This document shows positions 7,914 to 13,598 of a stretch of DNA of 32,000 bases, piece by piece. A program made the translations under genes and the position numbers. This DNA is from Pseudodesulfovibrio piezophilus C1TLV30. Lineage in GTDB: Bacteria; Desulfobacterota; Desulfovibrionia; Desulfovibrionales; Desulfovibrionaceae. The number at the start of each line of letters is the position of its first letter. Within the stretch, counting starts at the first letter, position 1. Where the stretch lies: the NCBI RefSeq assembly GCF_000341895.1, contig NC_020409.1:1170001-1202000 (forward strand), in the 5' to 3' direction. The notes below the pieces were generated by a model. It had not been told where the DNA came from. It saw only the letters and a list, made by a program, of their open reading frames with translations, and did not search any database.

Positions 7914-9638
7914 ATGAAGAATAATTATAAAGATATATCCAACGAAAGCCAACCCCACCCAACCCAATACGCGGCAAACGACAAACCGCTTTTACCAACT
8001 TTACCAACTTCCAAAATCGCTACGAAAAAAGCTTCTCTTGAAGCGGCCCCGACCTCGTCCGACTCTGGTAATCCGGCTAAGACCAATGCTGACGCAGATA
8101 AATTCGTACAGACCATCTTTGACGACGGCCTTACGCACCCCAAGGACATCGTGAGGCTTGAAGAAATGAACCACGAGTTTTTTGTTGCCCGGCACAATGG
8201 TAAAGTGGGAGTCATACAGGAAACCACCAACGAGAACAGCCAGACCGAAATCGTCCCGCTGACCGACCGCGAGCTGATGCTGCTCAAATCTCATGAGACT
8301 GTCAGACAGGTGAAGGGCTACGACAAAAACCACATGCCTAAGTATAAAAATGTACGGATTGCGGAAGCATGGCTCAACTGGAAATACCGACGCACATATG
8401 ACTCTACGGTTTTCCGTCCCGGTGGCTTGAACGAGGAGGAAGCCAAGCGGTTCTACAACCTGTTTCGCGGCTTTGAGGTGACGCCTGTTAAAGGTAAGTT
8501 CCCGAAGATCGAACACCACCTCAAGGAAGTATGGTGCAAGGGAAACTGGCGGCACTACAGGTACCTCACCAACTGGTTCGCCCACCTGCTCCAGTTCCCC
8601 ATGGACAAGGCCAAAGTCGCACTCGTGATCAAGGGCGGCAAGGGCTCGGGTAAATCCACCATCTTTGAAGGTATCTTCGAGCGAATCCTGGGAGCCGCAT
8701 ACTGCAAGGTAGACAGGCCCGAACAGGTCACGGGAAAGTTTAACGCCCACCAGCGCGGCAAGCTCCTGCTGGTCCTTGAAGAGGCTGTCTGGGCCGGAGA
8801 CAAGGCAGCAGAAGGCGCACTCAAGAGCATGATCACCGATAGAAAGACCATGATCGAACCCAAGGGCGTTGACGCCTACCAGGAGGACTCCTACTTCCGT
8901 CTGGCTTTCGTCTCCAACGAGCGTCGAGCCGTCCCCGCTACTGCTGACGAGCGGCGATACTTCGCCCTGTCCGTATCCGGCGACAAGGCCATGAACATCG
9001 ACTACTTCCGTGACCTGTGGGAGGAAATCGAAAACGGCGGCGTGGAAGCCTTCATGTACCACCTGCTGAACTGGAACGTGGATAAAGTGGAACTGTTGAA
9101 CCCGCCTCTGACCGAAGCCCTGTTCGAGGATATCTACGAGTCTTTCAGCGCATTCGAAAAATGGGTGTACGAGTTGCTCCACGACGAAGATGCCATTGAC
9201 TGGGGAAAACCCGTTCGAACCAAGGACCTCTACGACAACTACAAAGGATGGTACGAGGAAGCTTGTGGGCTTGGCAGCTTCCTCAAGGGAGGACAGATCT
9301 CCGGCCAGGGTAAGATGCGGTCGGTGGCCGAAGCGTTCTTCTCCGCCTCTCACAGAAAAATCGGCGGGCAGTCTCACCTGGAGATGCCGACCATGAAGAA
9401 TGCTCGCAAGATTTTCGAATCCAAGGTCAAGGCCGTGGTCATGTGGCGTGACGAAATGGGCAATGAACGCATCCCCGGCAACCGTTTGGCTCCTTCTGCC
9501 AGTCAGGTCCACGACAAGGACGCAGTTGATTGGTTTTATGAAGAAGAAATGAAGCCTGCTCCTAGCCAGCACTTCAACATCAGCAGCAACGACTGGTTCT
9601 TCCAGAACGAGATTGCCTCCGTGCATACAGACGACTAG
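7914..9638 (+). CDS. Superfamily-3 (D5/P4-type) NTPase, DUF5906-like primase-helicase family protein
   Basis: Walker A is VIKGGKGSGKST and Walker B is LLLVLEEA, followed by the FVSNE / RRYF blocks typical of phage/plasmid P4-type helicase C-terminal domains. GGAGA lies 7 nt before the ATG. Confidence 0.85.
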   Translation: MKNNYKDISNESQPHPTQYAANDKPLLPTLPTSKIATKKASLEAAPTSSDSGNPAKTNADADKFVQTIFDDGLTHPKDIVRLEEMNHEFFVARHNGKVGVIQETTNENSQTEIVPLTDRELMLLKSHETVRQVKGYDKNHMPKYKNVRIAEAWLNWKYRRTYDSTVFRPGGLNEEEAKRFYNLFRGFEVTPVKGKFPKIEHHLKEVWCKGNWRHYRYLTNWFAHLLQFPMDKAKVALVIKGGKGSGKSTIFEGIFERILGAAYCKVDRPEQVTGKFNAHQRGKLLLVLEEAVWAGDKAAEGALKSMITDRKTMIEPKGVDAYQEDSYFRLAFVSNERRAVPATADERRYFALSVSGDKAMNIDYFRDLWEEIENGGVEAFMYHLLNWNVDKVELLNPPLTEALFEDIYESFSAFEKWVYELLHDEDAIDWGKPVRTKDLYDNYKGWYEEACGLGSFLKGGQISGQGKMRSVAEAFFSASHRKIGGQSHLEMPTMKNARKIFESKVKAVVMWRDEMGNERIPGNRLAPSASQVHDKDAVDWFYEEEMKPAPSQHFNISSNDWFFQNEIASVHTDD

Positions 9639-10977: not shown

Positions 10978-11048
10978 CCGATATATCCACCCTATTTAGA
11001 AAAGTAAATATATATCAGGTCCACATTCGAGTAAGCCGGATATATCCA
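10978..11048. promoter_or_regulatory. Operator-like boxes in the divergent TM2 / XRE promoter region
   Basis: CCGATATATCCA at 10978-10989 and CCGGATATATCCA at 11036-11048; the core GATATATC is a perfect palindrome. A partial third copy AATATATATCAGG lies at 11007-11019. Confidence 0.5.
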
Positions 11049-11065
11049 TAGTTTGGAGGAAGATT

Positions 11066-11392
11066 ATGGACGATATCCTGCTCAAGCTCGGAAAACGCAT
11101 TCGGGAGTTTCGAAAAGAAAACGGCCTGTCACAGAGCCAGCTCGCGGAAAAGGCTGGCCTTAACGACAAGTACCTCGGCGAGGTCGAGAGGGGATCGAAC
11201 AACATCTCGATCAAGAACCTCGGCCAGATCGCGGCAGCCCTGGAGGTCGAGACCTTCGAGCTGCTCGACGGCTCCCACGAATATGAAGTCGACCGCAAGG
11301 AACTCGTCCAGAAGCTCCACAAAATCATCGAATCAGCGTCTGATGAGGAGCTCTGCGCCATCTATGGCTTCGCTTCTGACATCGTGAACTGA
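11066..11392 (+). CDS. XRE-family helix-turn-helix transcriptional regulator
   Basis: Contains LGKRIREFRKENGLSQSQLAEKAGLNDKYLGEVERGSNNISIKNLGQIAAAL, a canonical Cro/CI-type HTH. GGAGGA lies upstream of the ATG. Confidence 0.9.
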   Translation: MDDILLKLGKRIREFRKENGLSQSQLAEKAGLNDKYLGEVERGSNNISIKNLGQIAAALEVETFELLDGSHEYEVDRKELVQKLHKIIESASDEELCAIYGFASDIVN

Positions 11393-11490
11393 ACATCCTG
11401 TCTGTCTACATAAATAGAACTAGAGAGGTTTGCGGACCGCCCGCGAGCCCAGCTCTGGCTCTATAACTATATGTAATAAGGGAGGATGCA

Positions 11491-12075
11491 ATGTTAGAAA
11501 GCATCGACTTCAAGGCACTCTTCGCCGACCTCGGCCTCGACTCGACCACCAAGGGCGGCAACCTCGTCTGCCCGTTCTGCGGCAAGCACGCGTTCAGGGA
11601 GTACCGCGACAACGGCGTCGCTCGGTGCCACGCCTGCAATTGGGCTGGCAACGCCATCAACCTCGTCGACCAAGTGGAAGGCGTAGACGAGATCAAGATT
11701 CTCGCAACGCGCATGCACCTCTGCGACATCGAACACAGCAAGCAACGCTCCTGGAACGAGGCGTTCCGCAAGCTCGCCGACGACCTCGACTTCCTTGCCC
11801 AGGTCCGCGCCTACTTTGCCTTCTACAAGTCAGATCGAATGGGCGCGCCATACTACCAGCAGCAGTCGGGATACAGCCGATCCTACTTCGCGAAGGTCCT
11901 CAACGGGAACCTCGACAAGGTCTCGGCGAAGTCGTGGAAAGAGATCGTGGCGTTCTTGAGGAAGGCGATCAACGTCGGCCAGCTCAGGAAAGACATGATG
12001 ATGGGCTCGAAATATTGGAAGGAGACCATCAAGGACAAGGCTCTGCTGAGGGAGAGCGTGGACAAATTCAGGTAG
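11491..12075 (+). CDS. Zinc-finger protein resembling the primase CHC2-type Zn-binding domain; no catalytic domain seen
   Basis: Contains CPFCGK..(17 aa)..CHACNWAGNAINLV, which resembles the Zn-ribbon of DnaG/P4-type primases. GGGAGGA lies 4 nt before the ATG. The overlapping Arg-rich frame 11430..12092 is rejected. Confidence 0.7.
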   Translation: MLESIDFKALFADLGLDSTTKGGNLVCPFCGKHAFREYRDNGVARCHACNWAGNAINLVDQVEGVDEIKILATRMHLCDIEHSKQRSWNEAFRKLADDLDFLAQVRAYFAFYKSDRMGAPYYQQQSGYSRSYFAKVLNGNLDKVSAKSWKEIVAFLRKAINVGQLRKDMMMGSKYWKETIKDKALLRESVDKFR

Positions 12076-12440
12076 CCAGCTTTTTAGACTAAAAATCGAG
12101 AACGGGCGTTTGTGGGCATGACCTGCGAACGCCCTTCTTGCGTTATGGACGGCAAAGCCCATGAGTGGAGCACAGCTTGGGTCACACGTGATGAGCATGG
12201 GCTTGCTTGTTCGAACTCTCGTTCAGCAAAATTCCCAAATTGCAAATCAGAATTCATTAGACGACGCATTGTGCGCTTCGCGCATGACCACGCTCACCGG
12301 AAGAGGTGGGCAACGCCCACCCAACCGATGAGCGATGCTCATTGCTGCATTTCTTGGAAGAAATCCACCAGGCTGAATCGCTCCCGCCGCTTCACCTTCT
12401 GCTTGCTACTATTTATCGGAACACTGTGTCCGCAGGGGTG

Positions 12441-12490
12441 CTTTTCCGCACTTTTCCCGAAAAAAATTCATTTTTCCGATTTTTTTCTTC
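12441..12490. repeat. Five helically phased T/A tracts (10-bp period)
   Basis: The sequence reads CTTTTCCGCA CTTTTCCCGA AAAAAATTCA TTTTTCCGAT TTTTTTCTTC. The tracts recur every 10 bp, a pattern associated with intrinsic DNA curvature. Confidence 0.6.
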
Positions 12491-12519
12491 ATGAGCCACG
12501 TTCACGATAACACGCCGAC

Positions 12520-12651
12520 AATGTTAAGTTTTTGCCAAAAGTTAACATTCTCCAAAAAGCTACTGTGATTTTGAAGACTTATCGACCTCTCGAAATCGCC
12601 CGTCCTGAGAATGTTAAAAAAGCACGCAAAACCAAGCAGATACTTAACATT
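12520..12651. repeat. Four copies of AATGTTAA in alternating orientation forming nested inverted repeats
   Basis: Outer pair: AATGTTAAG 12520-12528 / CTTAACATT 12643-12651 (9 bp, perfect). Inner pair: TTAACATTCTC 12542-12552 / GAGAATGTTAA 12607-12617 (11 bp, perfect). Sites 1 and 2 also form a 28-bp palindrome at 12521-12548 (11/12 arm matches). Confidence 0.7.
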
Positions 12652-12656
12652 CAAAA

Positions 12657-13256
12657 ATGAGCCCTAGAAACGACAATCATCCACCCAAGGGAAGTTCCAT
12701 CACAGTGGAGCCCATCCGCTCCCTGAAAGCGATCTCGGCCATCAAAGCGATGCTCCACGACAAGCCGCGTGACCTTTTGCTCTTCGTCATGGCGACCAAC
12801 AACGGCATCCGATGCGGAGACCTCCTGCGGCTCAAGGTCGGCGACCTGCGCGGCAAGAGCGTCGACGACACCATCGCCGTGAAGGAGTCCAAGACGGGCA
12901 AGGCCAACGTCCTTGCGGTCAACGATTCAGTCCACTCAGCACTGACGCGGTTCCTCGCGTCAGGCTCGTTCTGCGACGACGCATACTTGTTCCGATCCCA
13001 GAAAGGAGACAACAAGCCGCTCACGATCCAGTCCGTCAACCGCATGGTGAAGGCGTGGTGCCGCGAGGCTGGCCTCGACGGCAACTACGGAGCCCACAGC
13101 CTGCGAAAGACGTTCGGCTACGTGCAGCGCGTTCACTTCGGCGTCGGCTTCGAGGTGCTGTGCAAGAGGTTCAACCACGCCTCGCCAGCCGTCACCATGC
13201 GCTACCTCGGCATCAGCGACACGGAAGTGGTCAGCATCCTGAAAAATTCGATCTAA
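12657..13256 (+). CDS. Short (199 aa) tyrosine recombinase consisting essentially of the catalytic domain
   Basis: The full catalytic set is visible: R (NNGIRCGDL), K (ESKTGK), HxxR (AHSLRKT), H (FNHAS), Y (TMRYLG). There is no N-terminal SAM-like DNA-binding domain and no obvious SD before the ATG. Confidence 0.85.
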   Translation: MSPRNDNHPPKGSSITVEPIRSLKAISAIKAMLHDKPRDLLLFVMATNNGIRCGDLLRLKVGDLRGKSVDDTIAVKESKTGKANVLAVNDSVHSALTRFLASGSFCDDAYLFRSQKGDNKPLTIQSVNRMVKAWCREAGLDGNYGAHSLRKTFGYVQRVHFGVGFEVLCKRFNHASPAVTMRYLGISDTEVVSILKNSI

Positions 13257-13361
13257 TTTCAGGAGGCGCGTTTACTTTTGGGGTCTCGATCTAGAGTTTA
13301 GATAATGGAGAGAGCGACTCTCCCCGTTTTTCATCAACCATTAAACCGGAGGTTATCAGCA

Positions 13362-13598
13362 ATGAGCAGACCGCTCCGTGTCGAAAGGCACTTCTTCAAC
13401 CAGCGCGAGGCAGCCGAGTACTGCGGCTACAGCACCGCGAAATTCAGGCAGTTTGCCAAGGAGTACGACATCCCCAAGTGCGGCCCGAACAGGGACAGGT
13501 ACCGCAAGGTGGACCTCGACAGCTTCATGGCCTGCCCCGGCGACTTCTTCAATCCCCTGCGCGTGCGCAAGGCCGGGTTCGTCCCGGTGGAGGTGTAG
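13362..13598 (+). CDS. Excisionase/AlpA-like helix-turn-helix DNA-binding protein
   Basis: Contains FFNQREAAEYCGYSTAKFRQFAKEYDIPKCGPNRDRYRKVDLDSFM, which fits the MerR-type excisionase-family HTH pattern. GGAGG lies 9 nt upstream of the ATG. The stop is 1 nt before the integrase ATG. Confidence 0.7.
   Translation: MSRPLRVERHFFNQREAAEYCGYSTAKFRQFAKEYDIPKCGPNRDRYRKVDLDSFMACPGDFFNPLRVRKAGFVPVEV

Follow-up and report, generated by a model that had tools for sequence, protein, structure and literature searches.

We analyzed a 32,000-nucleotide stretch of Pseudodesulfovibrio piezophilus C1TLV30 (NC_020409.1, positions 1,170,001 to 1,202,000; referred to here as the window, with coordinates counted from its first letter), focusing on a gap at 12076-12656 that is flanked by a gene for a 194-amino-acid (aa) zinc-ribbon protein (11491-12075) and a gene for a 199-aa tyrosine recombinase (12657-13256). 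At the right end of this gap lie four short, inverted sites, which we interpret as the probable target and control site of the recombinase. The array and its gene comprise the following features:

12517-12552, no strand assigned: putative core recombination site (sites 1 and 2), with left arm 12520-12532 AATGTTAAGTTTT, center 12533-12536 TGCC, right arm 12537-12549 AAAAGTTAACATT, and flanks GAc/cTC.
12553-12606, no strand assigned: spacer of fixed length between the core and the accessory pair, holding the conserved motif TGTGAT (12564-12569), which is invariant in clade alignment A3.
12607-12652, no strand assigned: putative accessory/operator pair (sites 3 and 4), consisting of GAGAATGTTAA (12607-12617) and TTAACATTC (12644-12652) in inverted orientation.
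12657-13256, plus strand: short tyrosine recombinase (PF00589), 199 aa, catalytic domain only, presumed binder of the four sites.

Exact copies of the 8-mer AATGTTAA start at 12520 (+), 12542 (-), 12610 (+), and 12644 (-), all within 132 base pairs (bp), and there are no others in the 32 kb. The expected count is 0.6, and only 1 of 100 shuffled sequences reached four copies, which were never clustered. A preliminary description of this DNA, made from the letters alone, had reported these copies in alternating orientation, with a perfect 9-bp outer pair (12520-12528/12643-12651), a perfect 11-bp inner pair (12542-12552/12607-12617), and a last copy ending 5 nucleotides (nt) before a start codon; all of this is present, the start codon being that of the recombinase (ATG at 12657). 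Pairing site 1 with site 4 and site 2 with site 3 is correct as arithmetic, but the natural grouping is 1/2 and 3/4. Sites 1 and 2 form a 30-bp palindrome, in which a repeat finder gives arms of 13 nt (16 nt at 88%) with 4 nt between them, and the pair is therefore a compact palindrome rather than two 8-mers 14 bp apart. The earlier objection, by which a classical core site could not have such long spacers, is thus wrong for this pair, which has a 4-bp center like that of IR1-IR2 in Tn4430 (PMC2847244). Judged from its sequence, pair 1/2 matches a classical tyrosine-recombinase core site in both size and shape. Six close relatives keep its arms unchanged but differ in the center (TTGCCA, TTGGCA, or TTAGCA), as would be expected of a crossover or overlap region that need only match itself. 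Sites 3 and 4 make up a wide palindrome, GAATGTTAA-N26-TTAACATTC, spaced 33 bp start to start on 9-nt half-sites (34 bp between the 8-mers at 12610 and 12644). No second core was found in the 32-kb window or in up to 8 kb on each side at other loci, and a scan of viral contigs with the core-site pattern gave no match.

The recombinase matches PF00589 (Phage_integrase) with an E value of 3.3e-19 and 69.7 bits, against a cutoff of 27.1. Its catalytic hexad (R-K-H-R-H/W plus Y) is intact, with R52, K79, R150, H174, and Y183 invariant and H147 at least 90% conserved among 26 homologues, and on paper it would be a competent enzyme. In the AlphaFold model (mean predicted local distance difference test score, pLDDT, of 86), the catalytic domain begins at residue 23 and residues 1-22 are disordered; a core-binding N-terminal domain is absent from the model, and the protein aligns only to the C-terminal half of Xer proteins. 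The closest folds in the PDB are those of XerA, XerH, Brujita Int, and Cre, with lambda Int also matching. The protein reached no cutoff of a curated family, missing those for Xer, Fim, and integron recombinases: the best Xer equivalog model was XerA (63.3 bits versus 220), XerC, XerD, and XerS gave 26-36 bits versus 267-335, and the tyrosine-invertase models NF007370 and NF007371 gave 21.7 and 18.4 bits versus 221 and 222. Exact-protein look-ups with the window recombinase and with P0010 gave no match, and literature searches for a characterized plasmid recombinase consisting of a catalytic domain only gave nothing relevant. A published classification of tyrosine recombinases defines its "simple" enzymes by a core-binding plus a catalytic domain and describes no catalytic-only group (PMC8138268).

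To assess conservation of the layout, we compared 130 loci carrying recombinase homologues at 36-95% identity, drawn from Desulfobacterota, Bacillota, Melainabacteria, Brocadiia, and other groups. At 91-95% identity, the window recombinase has counterparts in Pseudodesulfovibrio profundus, Desulfovibrio sp. Fe33, and D. caledoniensis, and the gene order of the window is repeated in P. profundus (L001), in TARA ocean contigs (L002-L005), in D. caledoniensis (L006), and in metagenomic contigs (L086-L088). The comparison with homologous elements that had been proposed as a check bore out the motifs: the four sites (12517-12652, 136 bp) are invariant in close relatives, and the layout is kept in distant homologues. 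We scored palindromes with 12-nt arms and a 4- to 10-nt spacer at 50-280 bp upstream of the gene in 94 nonredundant upstream regions and in 2,559 control windows. At least 11 of 12 arm positions matched in 37% of the upstream regions versus 2.9% of the controls, and at least 10 of 12 in 63% versus 12.8%. The homologous palindrome in other loci lies at about -90 to -225 relative to the recombinase homologue.

Thirty-one Desulfobacterota-type sites give a half-site consensus of gAATnTTAAcTTTT, which from its outer end inward reads gAAT-n-TTAA-c-TTTT and leaves ~4-6 central bases. At the uninformative position of the half-site, the left and right arms agree in 87% of the 31 sites versus 29% expected, and at the next four positions they agree in 94-100% versus 47-62%. 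The sequence thus differs between loci while both arms change together, as expected for a dimer-binding site. The same holds between sites, since the 9-mer half-site specific to each locus recurs between its core and the start codon in 57% of 53 loci, versus 13% when half-sites are taken from foreign loci, and it does so as a (+)...(-) pair in 23% versus 0.5% with half-sites from other loci. In L087, the change is concerted, with AATGTCAA or AACGTCAA at all four sites. Wherever an accessory pair exists (12 of 12 loci), it is inverted and spaced 32-34 bp start to start. From core center to accessory center, the window, L001, L006, L087, and L088 all measure exactly 96 bp although their sequences have diverged, and the distance falls at 96-97 or 112.5-114 bp in 12 of 16 loci, including seven outside the window clade (97 or 112.5-114 bp). 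This fixed geometry indicates one nucleoprotein complex spanning both palindromes. The two distance classes, as seen in L009, L014, L019, L047, L097, L101, and L102 versus the window clade, differ by ~1.5 helical turns. Several relatives also have a -35-like TTGAYW abutting site 3 and a Shine-Dalgarno sequence after site 4.

The layout is linked to the recombinase alone. Outside the window clade, tblastn detected no relatives of the DUF5906, XRE, or Zn-ribbon proteins beside the recombinase and only weak xis-like matches in L032 and L034, and a second tyrosine recombinase lies just downstream in only 9 of 72 loci. Because the recombinase is the only gene common to all loci with the layout, it is likely the binder of the sites. 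The early proposal of a recombination site for the adjacent recombinase has therefore gained support, as the layout follows the recombinase homologues to loci and plasmids in which no relatives of the nucleoside triphosphatase (NTPase), the XRE regulator, the xis-like protein, or the integrase were detected. The homologues matched 1,380 plasmid records and 195 phage records.

Two side observations concern what lies downstream of the homologues. In L010, L032, L040, and L047 (41-60% identity), a larger integrase follows on the same strand, with an Xis-like gene detectable only in L032, and the downstream integrase, present in only 9 of 72 loci, hints that integrative elements have recruited the module more than once. 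An apparent cassette variation downstream of the homologues in L120-L127 was rejected as a difference in gene calling, since the DNA is 99.6-100% identical.

A distant instance of the layout is found on pDCAR5, a complete 9.5-kb plasmid of Solidesulfovibrio carbinolicus that carries RepB and ParA and is typed as nonmobilizable. Its recombinase homologue is 41% identical and has the same layout. The core reads CTCGTCATCTT-ctacacaa-AAGATGACCAG, with an 8-nt center, and ~78 bp past it a TTGACA-17-TTTAAT promoter lies between a degenerate and an exact copy of the half-site, followed by a Shine-Dalgarno sequence and the ATG. Exact half-site copies are confined to this one site, and there is no second core in the plasmid.

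Taken together, these comparisons lead us to favor, with somewhat better than even confidence, a reading of 12517-12652 as the cognate target and self-control site of the adjacent 199-aa recombinase, of a resolution type like the TnpI/internal recombination site (IRS) system of Tn4430. Two protomers would bind sites 1 and 2 (13-bp arms around a 4-bp center) and exchange strands there, with cleavages ~6 bp apart by analogy with TnpI. Sites 3 and 4, whose center is exactly 96 bp away from that of the core and which reach up to the start codon, would take two further protomers, which would help build a defined synapse that permits recombination only between directly repeated whole sites, so that the element in its excised, replicating form (or a plasmid) would be resolved from multimers to monomers. 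The extra protomers would also repress the recombinase gene: given the -35 that abuts site 3 and the Shine-Dalgarno sequence after site 4 in relatives, occupancy should have this effect. Since there is one core per locus, a monomer has no partner site for inversion or excision, and the partner should thus be the same site on a second replicon copy, leaving multimer resolution or intermolecular integration. Resolution is favored by the place of the module beside ParA on a small plasmid and by the abundance of the homologues on plasmids and phages; the separate Xis-like/Int pair in the window element would point the same way, as would, by analogy with Tn4430, the position of the accessory sites on one side of the core. 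If true, this reading implies for the window element an excised, replicating stage that needs multimer resolution.

A number of points weigh against this interpretation. The case for binding and strand exchange by the recombinase is built on comparative sequence, and a protein modeled as a catalytic domain only has no evident means of clamping a 13-bp arm. Unlike the direct accessory motifs of Tn4430, those of the pair here are inverted, and we know of no characterized system with this geometry. The element is seen only in chromosome-integrated form, its excised replicating form being assumed from the primase-helicase genes. Among the homologues, 37% of the upstream regions score below 10/12 and have no recognizable core. 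In L090-L093, whose recombinases are 63% identical and which share the AATGTTAAG half-site, the accessory pair is kept, but of the core only the right arm AAACTTAACTTT remains, ~150-125 bp upstream of the recombinase gene, and the left arm is degenerate; this arrangement could be a decayed site or a recombined junction. Finally, the window clade has no clear -35 and no Shine-Dalgarno sequence before the recombinase gene, and a scan of 11000-13500 with the sigma-70 consensus found no promoter, so that the promoter, and hence autorepression, is not located there. Candidates in this clade are a near-leaderless transcript or TTAACA-16-TGTGAT, which overlaps the right core arm.

Several rival explanations share part of this evidence. 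If the four sites were a pure operator array, regulating only the recombinase gene and possibly the downstream xis-int genes with no strand exchange, the end of site 4 at 5 nt from the ATG would be accounted for, as would the bracketing of a sigma-70-like promoter by the accessory pair in relatives and the presence in the right core arm of TTAACA (TTGACA in L087), 16 nt upstream of the conserved TGTGAT. A repressor, however, needs no 13+4+13 shape, no variable center between conserved arms, and no family-wide catalytic hexad, and a terminator-like hairpin at 13307-13323 parts the recombinase gene from xis-int. We therefore regard a purely regulatory array as unlikely and retain, from the operator array proposed earlier, the part in which the site probably also represses the recombinase gene. 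Still less likely, in our view, is that the short recombinase is a simple integrase whose array is an attP-like site that inserts the carrier replicon into matching chromosomal or plasmid sequence. The homologues carry integrase annotations and hit PHROG 216 "integrase," many copies are chromosomal, attP/int modules likewise show a single site beside the recombinase gene, and the accessory pair with one good core arm in L090-L093 could be a recombined junction. Yet the core is intact and symmetric in the chromosomal copies, a second core-like junction was found neither in the 32-kb window nor within up to 8 kb on each side of the other loci, the window element already has its own Xis-like/Int pair, and the module also stands beside ParA on a small autonomous plasmid. 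A further, very unlikely option is a transfer origin (oriT) with an atypical relaxase, in which the recombinase nicks an oriT formed by the GC hairpins of the gap, the AATGTTAA sites load the relaxosome, and the island is mobilizable. The models for this are MpsA of SGI1 and TcpM of pCW3, for which such a role has been proposed. In SGI1, the oriT is 125 bp long, GC-rich, keyed by a 7-bp perfect inverted repeat, and located upstream of mpsA, a tyrosine-recombinase-fold gene that is followed by a 98-aa partner and separated from oriT by a small RNA (PMC6414798, PMC9299015). Here, too, the recombinase is preceded by a perfect inverted GC repeat of 7 bp (12306-12322), a 78- to 97-aa protein follows, and the window has no canonical relaxase. 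However, MpsA (~320 aa) models over 91-94% of XerH/Cre (PMC6414798) and therefore includes the core-binding region, whereas the window protein is a catalytic domain only. The small downstream protein weakly matches the HTH_17 excisionase type and not a SAM-like core-binding fold, the module occurs on a 9.5-kb plasmid typed as nonmobilizable, and the compact palindrome and full catalytic hexad point to recombination; outside the clade, moreover, the palindromic array travels with the recombinase and the hairpin block does not.

Both the size of the recombinase, ~200 aa like FimB/FimE, and the nested perfect inverted repeats had suggested a Fim-type switch, in which the recombinase inverts 12553-12606 or 12529-12642 and toggles a promoter. 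At least 12 homologous sequences (70-95% recombinase identity) are nevertheless all collinear, with a single orientation in the assembled sequences. The half-sites form one compact and one wide palindrome, not inverted crossover sites, and the wide one, with 24-26 bp between its half-sites, cannot be a crossover site; a segment of 54-114 bp would also be very short for inversion, and the invertase-family scores given above are far from their cutoffs. We thus consider such a switch highly improbable. Least probable of all is a replication origin in which the repeats are iterons for the DUF5906/P4-type NTPase (termed a superfamily 3 enzyme in the preliminary description) and the A/T tracts are an unwinding or bent element. 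This idea gains from the position of the gap after a primase-type Zn-ribbon gene in an element with a P4-family primase-helicase, and phased A/T tracts and hairpins are common at origins. The array, however, accompanies the recombinase on a RepB plasmid and in loci where no DUF5906 gene was detected, and the site sequence covaries with the recombinase. Moreover, the NTPase has been swapped (40% identity) between elements with identical arrays, so that the repeats do not follow the initiator/helicase gene. P4-type iterons (SKTTCACS) are not enriched (8 found versus 8.7 expected), and DnaA boxes are not clustered in the gap. An origin role is conceivable only for the block at 12262-12490.

The left part of the gap holds features that are separate from the repeat array, although the hairpins and T-tracts had been presented together with it; they belong to a terminator, a conserved block, and a variably conserved A/T-rich stretch:

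12100-12139, plus strand: probable intrinsic terminator of the upstream XRE/Zn-ribbon operon, with stem GGGCGTT (12104-12110)/AACGCCC (12128-12134) and a G-U extension, followed by TTCTT.
12262-12440, no strand assigned: clade-specific, nearly invariant noncoding block, ~100% identical in the window, L001, L002, and L006.
12441-12490, no strand assigned: five phased A/T tracts with a predicted intrinsic bend, of period ~10 bp, the last tract ending ~30 bp before the core site.

The gap is 95% identical among close relatives, the more distant clade members being those with 70-86% recombinase identity, and the view that it contains no credible open reading frame (ORF) is upheld. Gene callers placed no gene in it on seven related contigs, and every long ORF is broken by 1-, 2-, and 4-nt indels in L001 and L002 and by two more 1-nt indels in L006; the 132-aa ORF at 12112-12510 and the other ORFs of the gap were rejected as genes because of these frame-breaking indels. 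The probable terminator hairpin, placed at 12100-12137 in the preliminary description, lies 25 nt past the stop codon of the 194-aa gene. In L002-L004, its inner stem is a different, fully paired sequence, GGGCGTTAGCA...TGCTAACGCC, so that the pairing is kept. A consensus scan did not flag the hairpin at 12100-12139, because its T-run is weak. The following stretch, 12140-12260, is conserved among the closest relatives only and is absent in L087.

Between the window, L001, L002, and L006, the block at 12262-12440 hardly varies, although the proteins on its flanks share only 73-95% identity. The GC hairpins noted earlier are present here, with GGTGGGC-AAC-GCCCACC at 12306-12322 and ATGAGC-GAT-GCTCAT measured at 12328-12342; the former is the apex of a longer hairpin (12291-12334), and other small hairpins lie at 12271-12283 (TGCGC-TTC-GCGCA) and 12350-12369. 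The apex stem is compensated in L087 (GGAGAGGC-GA-GCCTCTCC), RNAalifold found changes on both sides in 12 of 31 pairs, and the folding z-scores of the block are -2.0 (plus strand) and -3.0 (minus strand). A 22-nt box, CTTGCTaCTATTTATCrGAwCA (12402-12424), is invariant in all seven clade members. Read by eye, its consensus fits neither a sigma-54 nor an integration host factor (IHF) site, and both candidates were rejected. The block was not found upstream of recombinase homologues outside the clade and has no match in Rfam, either at the gathering threshold or at E values up to 5; a BLASTN search of 12140-12520 against phages and plasmids found no match, and when viral contigs were scanned with the invariant box, the one match was a chance one in a coding region of an unrelated AT-rich contig (L129). 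Possible roles for the block are those of an oriT, a cis-acting RNA, or a site that the neighboring primase-type proteins use as an origin or for priming. As to the five phased tracts (12442-45, 12452-55, 12460-66, 12471-75, and 12480-86), their presence is confirmed, a chain of this kind appearing in 0 of 5,000 shuffles, but the exact 10-bp period first ascribed to them is not, since the centers are 10, 9.5, 10, and 10 bp apart. L001 and L002 have two degraded tracts, those of L086 and L088 are less strictly phased, and L087 lacks the whole segment, so that the bend predicted for the window sequence is not a conserved requirement.

With respect to its setting, the gap sits in an integrated element of an estimated ~10-12 kb with its own replication and integration modules; right of ~16.4 kb, ordinary metabolic genes occupy the window. 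From the left, the element encodes a DUF5906/P4-type primase-helicase, a 269-aa gene on the opposite strand, a small variable gene, an XRE regulator, and the Zn-ribbon gene; after the ~570-bp gap come the short recombinase, an HTH_17 Xis-like gene, a 340-aa integrase, and a 402-aa protein. No transposase occurs among these neighbors (primase-helicase, XRE, Zn-ribbon, Xis-like, and Int), the 32-kb window has no tRNA genes, and a search of the element's flanks for att-type direct repeats gave no convincing candidate. The DUF5906/P4-type NTPase has 574 aa in the window (7914-9638) and in L003, whereas those of L001 (4342-6984) and L002 (4006-6702) have 880-898 aa and are only ~40% identical to it; the NTPase match in L006 is as distant (~40%), yet the remainder of these elements is near-identical. 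The replication module appears to have been exchanged between sister elements. At its N terminus, the 194-aa protein has a DnaG-type primase zinc ribbon (phrog_47 DNA primase, 2.5e-07, and a weak match to Pfam Zn_ribbon_DnaG), and it may cooperate with the DUF5906 helicase at a nearby priming site. The small protein downstream of the recombinase (78-97 aa) has a weak HTH_17 match of the excisionase type and no SAM-like integrase N-terminal domain. Because the terminator-like hairpin at 13307-13323 (GGAGAGAGCGACTCTCC and then a T-run) lies between the two, the short recombinase and the Xis-like/Int modules may be transcribed separately. Farther left, a GC-rich stretch outside the element contains a 114-nt direct repeat (3117-3230/3442-3555, 325 bp apart, 73% identity), whose adjoining genes encode Fic/DOC, Sel1-repeat, and DUF4357 proteins.

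More tentatively, the comparisons hint that catalytic-only recombinases of ~175-200 aa and a bipartite site, with a 13+4+13 core and a wide palindrome at ~96 or ~113 bp, could form a widespread, self-contained cassette, found on plasmids, phages, and integrative elements from Desulfobacterota to Bacillota and Cyanobacteria, in which the inverted accessory sites organize the synapse; we hold this generalization to be possible rather than probable. To our knowledge, such a cassette has not been characterized previously. If true, it would be a new, recombinase-only way to impose topological selectivity without a core-binding domain. If the resolution reading is right, a very common but unstudied class of "integrase" annotations would gain a DNA target together with a mechanism that can be tested. 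Rather than integrases, these small recombinases would be enzymes of maintenance or resolution that have a compact site of their own, which would change the annotation of their carriers. The family could also supply orthogonal recombinase/site pairs for genome engineering, which is conceivable because the proteins are small, the sites are short, and the specificity positions vary by locus. That a recombinase should have its site beside its own gene will be little surprise to the specialist; the cross-phylum bipartite geometry is a useful and testable lead.

Among known systems, the array appears to resemble the TnpI/IRS type in how it would work but is not a member of that family. Selective resolution of that type deletes DNA between direct repeats only and yields a two-noded catenane. 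Four motifs sharing 8-9 bp lie within 116-136 bp beside the recombinase gene in both cases (binding being predicted here), and both have a core of two inverted motifs with a 4-bp center, 14+4+14 there and 13+4+13 here. TnpI (284 aa) is a two-domain enzyme, whereas the enzyme here has 199 aa and a catalytic domain only, and the carrier is an integrative element or plasmid with no Tn3-family TnpA. The accessory motifs are tandem and direct in Tn4430 but inverted here, at a fixed 32-34 bp (three helical turns). In Tn5401, the recombinase motifs reportedly also overlap the promoter and give autoregulation, a finding attributed to Baum in 1995. The 116-bp IRS of Tn4430 has four TnpI motifs, a core (IR1-IR2) with a 6-bp cleavage stagger, and two accessory motifs that act as a topological filter for resolution (PMC2847244). 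As here, these two further motifs lie on the gene side of the core, where extra protomers bind in Tn4430 (PMC2847244).

The single-recombinase Xer systems (XerS/difSL, XerH/difH, and XerA/dif) share with the window an ~30-bp imperfect palindrome beside the gene and a role, proposed here, in multimer resolution, and the best sequence and fold matches of the recombinase are Xer catalytic domains. Activation of Xer recombination depends on FtsK. Unlike Xer, the window protein misses the family cutoffs (63 bits versus 220), has no core-binding domain, is carried by a mobile element, and is accompanied by an accessory pair. FimB and FimE, which have no separate core-binding domain, are likewise ~200 aa long and have short inverted repeats near their genes, but they act on two crossover sites flanking an ~300-bp promoter segment, where the window has one core and one wide palindrome. 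The likeness to SGI1 MpsA/MpsB-oriT and pCW3 TcpM-oriT lies in a structured GC-hairpin region, a tyrosine-recombinase-fold gene, a small protein, and no canonical relaxase (PMC6414798, PMC9299015). MpsA differs in having ~320 aa and a core-binding-like partner, MpsB, compared with 199 aa and a downstream protein that is not core-binding-like in the window. TcpM is well over 250 aa long. As with Cre/loxP, ResD/rfsF, and Rsd/crs, which keep plasmids monomeric, the recombinase gene lies near its own putative 30- to 34-bp palindromic site. Cre is a two-domain enzyme of 343 aa that needs no accessory sites; the arms of the window core are AT-rich with an invariant inner AACTTT.

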